From a virus (taxonomy: Duplodnaviria; Caudoviricetes): a stretch of DNA of 64,000 nt. Below, piece after piece: positions 18,331-18,754 of this stretch. The position numbers and the translations under genes are program-made. The stretch is taken from positions 3,498-67,497 of IMG/VR virus record IMGVR_UViG_3300036982_000556. One strand, 5' to 3'. The notes under the pieces are model-generated. The model searched no databases and had not been told where the DNA came from. It saw nothing but the letters and a program-made list of their open reading frames with translations. The number at the start of each line of letters is the position of its first letter. Position 1 is the first letter of the stretch.

Positions 18331-18403
18331 AAAAAGAAATATCAAAGATTCTTTGTTATTGACTTGACGTAATGTAGTTCCATCGACTACATTCATGGGG
18401 GTA
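18331..18403 (+). promoter_or_regulatory. Repeated promoter, ncRNA-associated subtype
   Basis: TTGACG-18-TACATT then CATGGGGGTAGG. Confidence 0.8.
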
Positions 18404-18754
18404 GGGAAGTACAACCGAAACGAACCGGCGCAACCGGGGGTCAAGGCGGGGGGACAACCGTAGCAAAAGGGTTCCGACAAGCACCAAGGTCAACGGCCTT
18501 CTAGTGGACATCAGACACTCAGCAGGGATACGGCAACGTATCTCCAACGCAAGCCAGCACGCACTAGCGGGAACACGACACTTGATGGCAGAAGCAACGC
18601 ATGAGCAATCGTGACGTAAGAGCTACCGAAAGTAGTTCTGAATGTGAGGTGTGCCTGAGTTCGTGGATTGCGCATCTAGTAGCAAAAGCGCAGTAAGGGC
18701 CTTGGTGAATCAAACTTGTCGGAACCGAATTACGGTCCCCCCGCCTTTTCGGTT
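18399..18754 (+). ncRNA. Candidate structured ncRNA E (~355 nt)
   Basis: Four nested 5'/3' helices of 8, 11, 12 and 10 bp; gatacg-GCAA-cgtatc hairpin. Confidence 0.75.

Follow-up and report, generated by a model that had tools for sequence, protein, structure and literature searches.

What does this phage encode in the roughly 355 nt that lie between ssb and an operon converging on it? The window analysed here, meaning the whole stretch of DNA, covers 64 kb; the IMG/VR viral contig from which it comes measures 67.5 kb, with a completeness estimate of 83% and a G+C content of 55%. An initial annotation read the locus as a stand-alone structured RNA, referred to as E in the following. The phage itself is far removed from cultured phages. 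Its large terminase reaches at most ~25% identity to that of any GenBank phage, and blastn searches of GenBank phages with E returned no match. The terminase gene (8274-9845, minus strand) has its best cellular relatives in two lineages that hint at the host, the contigs compared being L168 and L169. A gene on a 126-kb Acidimicrobiales MAG contig, with 69% G+C in the stretch analysed, shows 59% identity to it, and a gene of Deinococcus marmoris shows 39%. On the Acidimicrobiales contig, neither an E-like nor a C-like RNA was found beside the terminase gene (RNA C is a sibling of E described below). Because of these terminase relatives, an Rpf-like transglycosylase domain encoded by the phage and related metagenome contigs that, judged from their record names, come from lakes, the host is probably a freshwater actinobacterium. 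A search for E in 401 Acidimicrobiia genomes and in the two genomes with terminase relatives yielded only short matches at chance level.

The neighbours of E are genuine genes, in line with the initial annotation. Upstream lies ssb (17789-18286; Pfam SSB, 7e-31), and a HIRAN-domain gene and a PD-(D/E)XK exonuclease gene also belong to the surroundings of E. Downstream, the convergent operon ends with orf126 (18968-19348, minus strand) and orf70 (18756-18968, minus strand), the stop codon of the latter (18756-18758) abutting the 3' end of E. Compared with the related contig IMGVR_UViG_3300036982_000579 (G001), 19 of 28 substitutions in orf70 and 31 of 57 in orf126 fall at third codon positions, a bias that marks both genes as real. 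The sole plus-strand ORF that runs on downstream of E overlaps the orf70/orf126 region and is broken in G001, and E therefore has no downstream gene to regulate. The two minus-strand genes (18756-19348) have a common motif, FY(T/L)LREAR(V/W)(F/Y)A, and orf126 carries Cys-rich motifs suggestive of a zinc finger; Pfam and PHROG gave no match for either gene. Elsewhere, the phage encodes a DNA methyltransferase with an inserted PLP-dependent enzyme domain (Pfam PALP, 2e-17) and a second methyltransferase fused to a ParB-like N-terminal domain (regions 26789-28405 on the plus strand and 1546-3156 on the minus strand). Among the ~40 phage ORFs scanned, no reverse transcriptase, Ro60/TROVE, transposase or RNA-binding domain was recognised.

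E itself is devoid of coding potential. It contains no ORF of note, and all three kinds of stop codon are present in all six frames. Stop-codon recoding was excluded because all three stops occur in the six frames of E and of its siblings. A small-peptide gene was rejected as well: G001 lacks a leaderless 22-codon ORF that starts in the leader of E (18396-18412), and in the second related phage, IMGVR_UViG_3300046001_005845 (G002), an insertion interrupts an inner 9-codon ORF.

The predicted fold of E consists of a rod of ~50 bp (P1-P4), which joins both ends of the RNA, and a head of 200 nt, whose three arms include two GCAA tetraloops. The four nested long-range helices listed in the initial annotation were recovered from the sequence, by an inverted-repeat scan and in the MFE fold, all on the plus strand. 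P1 pairs 18413-18420 with 18747-18754, seven of these pairs appearing in the MFE fold as aaccgaa/uucgguu at 18413-18419/18748-18754, and a side hairpin between P1 and P2, P1a, has the form CCGG-CGCAA-CCGG (18425-18437). P2, described earlier as 11 bp, extends to 13 nt at 100% in the inverted-repeat scan (18443-18455, AAGGCGGGGGGAC, paired with 18735-18747; repeat I8, pair probability 0.94). A fifth helix adds to the four first reported, namely P3, formed by CCGUAG (18458-18463) and UUACGG (18730-18735). The 5' strand of P4 (18470-18491; I10, pair probability 1.0) pairs with two segments: the 12-bp helix 18470-18481/18715-18726, found as 12 nt at 100% in the inverted-repeat scan, and the helix CACCAAGGUC/GGCCUUGGUG at 18482-18491/18698-18707, seen in both sequence and MFE fold. 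Together they give 22 pairs, one of them U-G, with a 7-nt bulge (18708-18714) on the 3' side. The 3' strands of P4, P3, P2 and P1 occupy 18698-18754 according to scan and fold. Loops within the rod are small (3, 6/3 and 7 nt, plus the side hairpin).

The head (18492-18697) is found in both MFE and centroid folds. Arm I (18495-18555) carries a GCAA tetraloop hairpin, arm II (18558-18665) contains a GCAA hairpin and a CGAAA hairpin, and arm III (18667-18694) carries a 14-nt loop. Both inner hairpins listed in the initial annotation, GAUACG-GCAA-CGUAUC and AGAGCUAC-CGAAA-GUAGUUCU, are present. The 10-mer GUAGCAAAAG occurs twice in E and is unpaired both times, once after the 5' strand of P3 (18460-18469) and once in the loop of arm III (18679-18688), with ~0.1 copies expected by chance in the whole genome. 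It is found once more in a hairpin loop of an insert in an orthologue of RNA C (L146:4919).

The stability of this fold stands out against shuffled sequences. In the folding check proposed at the outset, carried out on a 366-nt stretch, E reached an MFE of -144.6 kcal/mol compared with -112.5 +/- 5.2 for dinucleotide shuffles, none of 100 shuffles being as good (z -6.2). For 36 random 366-nt windows of the phage, the mean z was 0.0 (sd 1.0, minimum -2.3). By raw GC-adjusted MFE, the E window ranks only ~9th of 1044; this is a weak genome-wide outlier measure and shuffle z-scores were used instead, so that the real signal lies in the shuffle z together with the perfect long-range helices.

E is predicted to be a transcription unit that extends from a promoter cassette to a terminator. 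The cassette copy (18328-18395, plus strand) was recognised through repeat families D13, D15, I12, I13 and I23, through a pattern match and through a promoter-like site, TTGACG-18-TACATT. It is made up of an A-rich upstream part, TTGACT/TTGACG (18359-18369), the spacer GTAGT-N7-ACTAC (18374-18390) and TACATT (18388-18393), and would place the start site of E at ~18395-18400. The cassette family comprises ~17 copies of 70-90 bp consisting of an A-rich part, TTGACTTGA, a spacer and TACATT, and elsewhere such cassettes lie ahead of genes. Matches to the cassette pattern, written as a regular expression, are located at 7733, 12320, 18359 and 20822 (minus strand). The copy at 20854-20776 on the minus strand has the same palindromic spacer, GTAGT-N7-ACTAC, as that of E and is followed by a short leader, AAGGAG and ATG. 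This leadered mRNA (20854-20605, minus strand) encodes a 48-aa peptide with a very high content of Arg, Asp and Asn and heads the operon that converges on E. In E, the cassette is followed by a poorly conserved 5' leader (18396-18412), which belongs to the promoter/5'-UTR part and not to the conserved body. At the other end (18735-18758), the 3' strand of P2, GUCCCCCCGCC, runs directly into UUUUCGGUUUUU, giving the G+C-rich stem and U-run of an intrinsic (Rho-independent) terminator. The partner of this stem lies 279 nt upstream, which is atypical, and a simple terminator scan made no call. The 3' end of E would thereby lie near 18754-18758, flush with P1.

E is rare, having been found in only three phage contigs and two contig-end fragments. 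An SSB-anchored search of IMG/VR and metagenomes yielded only G001, G002 and the fragments L065 (82 nt) and L162 (191 nt), and a search with neighbouring proteins found no contigs with E beyond G001 and G002. A scan of IMG/VR for the base-module pattern described below added orthologues of C and one E fragment, the remaining hits being chance matches in coding DNA. A match in G003 (L040) was rejected as a chance match within a gene of an unrelated phage. Other phages with a 76-83% identical SSB have protein genes after ssb and no E there. Each of the three genomes with E contains a single copy that adjoins orf70; in G002, ssb is located ~8 kb away and E still abuts orf70.

Where it is present, E is strongly conserved. 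Its body (18413-18754) is 98.2% identical in G001 and 96.2% identical in G002, compared with 84-85% and 77-79%, respectively, for ssb, orf70 and orf126, so that the body evolves 5-8 times more slowly than the flanking genes. Identity of promoter and leader is only 52-68%, the leader alone (18396-18412) reaching 52% in G001 and 82% in G002; thus, the conserved block begins exactly at P1 and ends at the terminator. The sole large indel is a 38-nt insertion in G002 in the loop of the hairpin 18600-18613, which forms a hairpin of its own. Five helix changes among the orthologues fit the fold and two break it, a ratio that is not significant as the orthologues are too alike. Among these orthologues, loops are conserved as well as stems, which argues for constraints beyond secondary structure.

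E is accompanied by further RNA units in the same genome. In all, ~3.3 kb free of ORFs, A-rich (29%) and U-poor (17%) on the promoter strand, is given over to at least five promoter-to-terminator RNA units without Rfam match; the five other units besides E lie on both strands, each co-oriented with its own promoter. RNA C (window 7772-8268, plus strand) has the same closed architecture as E. The base module common to E, C and B consists of the 5' strand of P1, the CCGG hairpin and the 5' strand of P2. It opens the RNA body with the pattern AACC-N-AAA / GAACCGG-loop-CCGGGG / GGCGG and pairs with the 3' end, where the partners are alike too (GUCCC..GCC and GGUU..U). The stem of the CCGG hairpin is kept in all three RNAs and its loop varies (CGCAA, AACGA, AAGCA, AACUA, AGACACAA). 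Local alignments of E with short-loop C orthologues cover 37 nt at the body start, with z 5.6 (L039) and 4.0 (G001), and the alignment with B covers 24 nt at the same position (z 3.4). The window copy of C gave a non-significant z of 1.0 because its hairpin loop is expanded.

Orthologues of C were found at L039:8102-8780, L054:2460-3192 (minus strand), L146:4764-5665, L166:744-1384 and L145:5610-6100 and are more divergent than those of E. In their consensus fold, 10-15 pairs show compensatory changes, some of them in P1 and in the long closing helix. One pair of the P1 homologue, for example, is C-G in G000, U.G in L166 and U-A in G001, and one pair of P2 likewise occurs as C-G, U.G and U-A. 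C orthologues also differ by whole domains, each closed by perfect helices of 26-31 bp, and the insert in L146 bears motifs of RNA B as well as the GUAGCAAAAG loop motif of E. The RNAs are therefore modular, with modules exchanged among them, and we read E, C and B as a new modular family of phage structured RNAs. Within this set, E is the smallest and most tightly folded member, its shuffle z of -6.2 comparing with -2.4 for C and -1.2 for B.

Taken together, the predicted promoter cassette and terminator, the lack of coding potential, boundaries that coincide with the closing helix and wobble substitutions specific to the plus strand bear out the stand-alone structured RNA of ~355 nt originally proposed. 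That E is a real, selected, structured RNA gene is very probable. We hypothesize, with a probability of about 0.6, that E is an independent non-coding RNA gene of ~345-360 nt whose head presents a candidate partner-binding surface and which acts in trans. In such a mechanism, E would function as RNA, the base rod would hide both ends from exonucleases and serve as the common handle of the family, and the near-invariant head, the GNRA loops and the unpaired GUAGCAAAAG motifs would form the working surface. The head could then bind a host or phage protein, as a decoy or RNP scaffold, or other copies of the RNA in the manner of ROOL and GOLLD. This way of engaging a partner is put forward tentatively, and self-assembly in particular would seem unlikely. 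Antisense targets within the phage were rejected, with 11-mer matches between E and either strand of the remaining phage genome at chance level (11 compared with 9.9 expected). Pairing between E and its siblings was not significant either (7 complementary 9-mers compared with 2.9 expected; shuffle maximum 11).

The main rival is a role in cis, at the junction between ssb and the convergent operon. Here, E would be a bidirectional terminator or insulator between the two operons, and its abundant transcript would base-pair with antisense read-through RNA of the convergent operon, making that RNA a target of RNase III. Several features of the locus invite this interpretation: the 3' end of E abuts the orf70 stop codon, the convergent operon reaches E without a terminator of its own, the complement on the minus strand also folds (z -4.1), and the far end on that strand has a CCGG hairpin followed by a U-rich run. 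Furthermore, E keeps its place beside orf70 throughout the three phages, including the one in which 8 kb separate it from ssb. However, ~30 nt are enough for a terminator, which leaves 340 nt conserved at 96-98% identity, the GNRA loops and a strong promoter of its own unexplained. Close relatives do without E, and the siblings A and B lack a convergent arrangement with neighbouring genes. A junction role is accordingly regarded as improbable compared with the trans-acting RNA described above.

A second alternative is that the inverted repeats act in single-stranded or cruciform DNA, as an origin, as a primosome-assembly or single-strand initiation site or as a recombination site. The location of E among ssb, HIRAN-domain and PD-(D/E)XK exonuclease genes would suit such an element, and E folds as single-stranded DNA with the same significance as it does as RNA (z -6.2), so that energy alone does not decide between RNA and DNA. 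Arms separated by 230-280 nt, as in E, do not readily extrude as a cruciform. Neither iterons, nor an AT-rich stretch, nor a turn of the GC skew was seen at E, and its promoter and U-run give it a single orientation. The two strands, moreover, are not equivalent. The plus-strand fold (-144.6 kcal/mol) is better by 12 kcal/mol than that of the minus strand (-132.4 kcal/mol), and it includes five G.U pairs that would be A.C mismatches on the minus strand. Four substitutions of C/U opposite G (18602, 18700, 18701 and 18739) keep pairing in plus-strand RNA only, and two P4 pairs are changed from G-C to G.U in G002. Orientation of promoter and U-run, fold energy, G.U pairs, substitutions and the position of the insertion in a loop all favour RNA of the plus strand. 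The five other units, found on both strands with each facing as its promoter does, likewise speak against a DNA-level element, and we consider such an element clearly improbable.

E could also be a selfish, MITE-like element that spread recently between phages and has no function for them. Its terminal inverted repeats, its presence and absence among close relatives, an identity far above that of the flanks with sharp boundaries at the repeats, and the coming and going of the C modules with their perfect 26-31-bp helices are what such an element might show, and the high identity of E could indeed stem in part from recent exchange between phages. However, E is present as one copy per genome, always between a promoter cassette and orf70, with no flanking direct repeat visible and no transposase gene recognised. 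Most sibling RNA units are also better conserved than the genome average (~80-93%), and raised conservation across the RNA units fits selection better than several independent recent transfers, in this case six recent invasions. A purely selfish element is therefore given little weight.

It had further been suggested that E resembles 6S or Ms1 RNA and, by mimicking open promoter DNA, sequesters RNA polymerase; paired ends that form a long rod and a size near that of Ms1 recall these RNAs, and a phage could conceivably gain by retargeting host RNA polymerase, but no Rfam model matches at E<=10 and the rod, without a large central bubble that would resemble an open promoter, leads into a three-arm junction with a 200-nt branched head at its end, and this analogy is hence the one to which we attach the least credence. 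DNA-level, selfish and 6S-like interpretations are all less likely than a cis junction or a trans-acting RNA.

To place E among known RNAs, Rfam 15 was searched with cmscan. Positions 18380-18770 gave no match at E<=10, and the whole 64-kb window gave none at E<=1 or at the gathering threshold. Since there is no match even at E<=10, the 6S/Ms1 idea is unsupported, and the reading of E as a structured non-coding RNA is the part of the initial annotation that is right. This search included the check suggested there, with models of 6S, Ms1, tmRNA, RNase P and SRP RNA, none of which matches. RNase P RNA and SRP RNA were rejected on these grounds, as were GOLLD and ROOL. E had also been described as tmRNA-sized with no T-arm, which agrees with ARAGORN: the program finds neither a T-arm in E nor any tRNA or tmRNA in the window, and tmRNA was rejected for want of a tRNA-like domain and of an Rfam match.

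To our knowledge, few large structured RNAs encoded by phages have been described (GOLLD, ROOL and pRNA), and their functions are largely open. One far-reaching interpretation would be that E and its siblings, five or six large RNAs in all, modular and with shuffled domains, make up a set encoded by the phage that occupies ~5% of the genome, has a common base handle and a regulated promoter type, and works jointly as an RNA-only or RNA-protein machine or as a decoy set for host takeover or for blunting defences in freshwater actinobacterial phages. We regard this as speculative and rather unlikely; if true, such a machine or decoy set would represent a viral RNA class not yet described. E offers a tractable entry point for studying RNA suites in phages of abundant freshwater bacteria because it is the smallest of these RNAs, compactly folded, cleanly bounded and near-invariant and has its base module in common with its siblings.

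Three known systems lend themselves to comparison. In Y RNAs, which are bound by Ro60/Rsr, a conserved stem formed from both ends is likewise the handle that paralogues share, and they differ in the distal part. In contrast to Y RNAs, E has no tRNA-like domain and no Rfam match, and no TROVE/Ro60 protein was recognised among the ORFs scanned. The pRNA of phi29 is a single RNA of ~170 nt from the genome end, whereas five or six different RNAs are present here, and it has no sequence or model match to E. It is, however, also a phage-encoded structured RNA with its own promoter, and it works in a phage machine. GOLLD and ROOL are large "ornate" RNAs of phages and prophages, GOLLD being known from lake metagenomes as well. 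Both have been shown by cryo-EM to form RNA-only homo-oligomers (PMC12286853); for E, oligomers are conjecture, and E differs from both in its smaller size (~350 nt), in its location away from tRNA genes and in the absence of a model match. Like GOLLD and ROOL, E is a non-coding phage RNA encoded by a stand-alone gene, and its extensive structure likewise includes long helices and GNRA loops.
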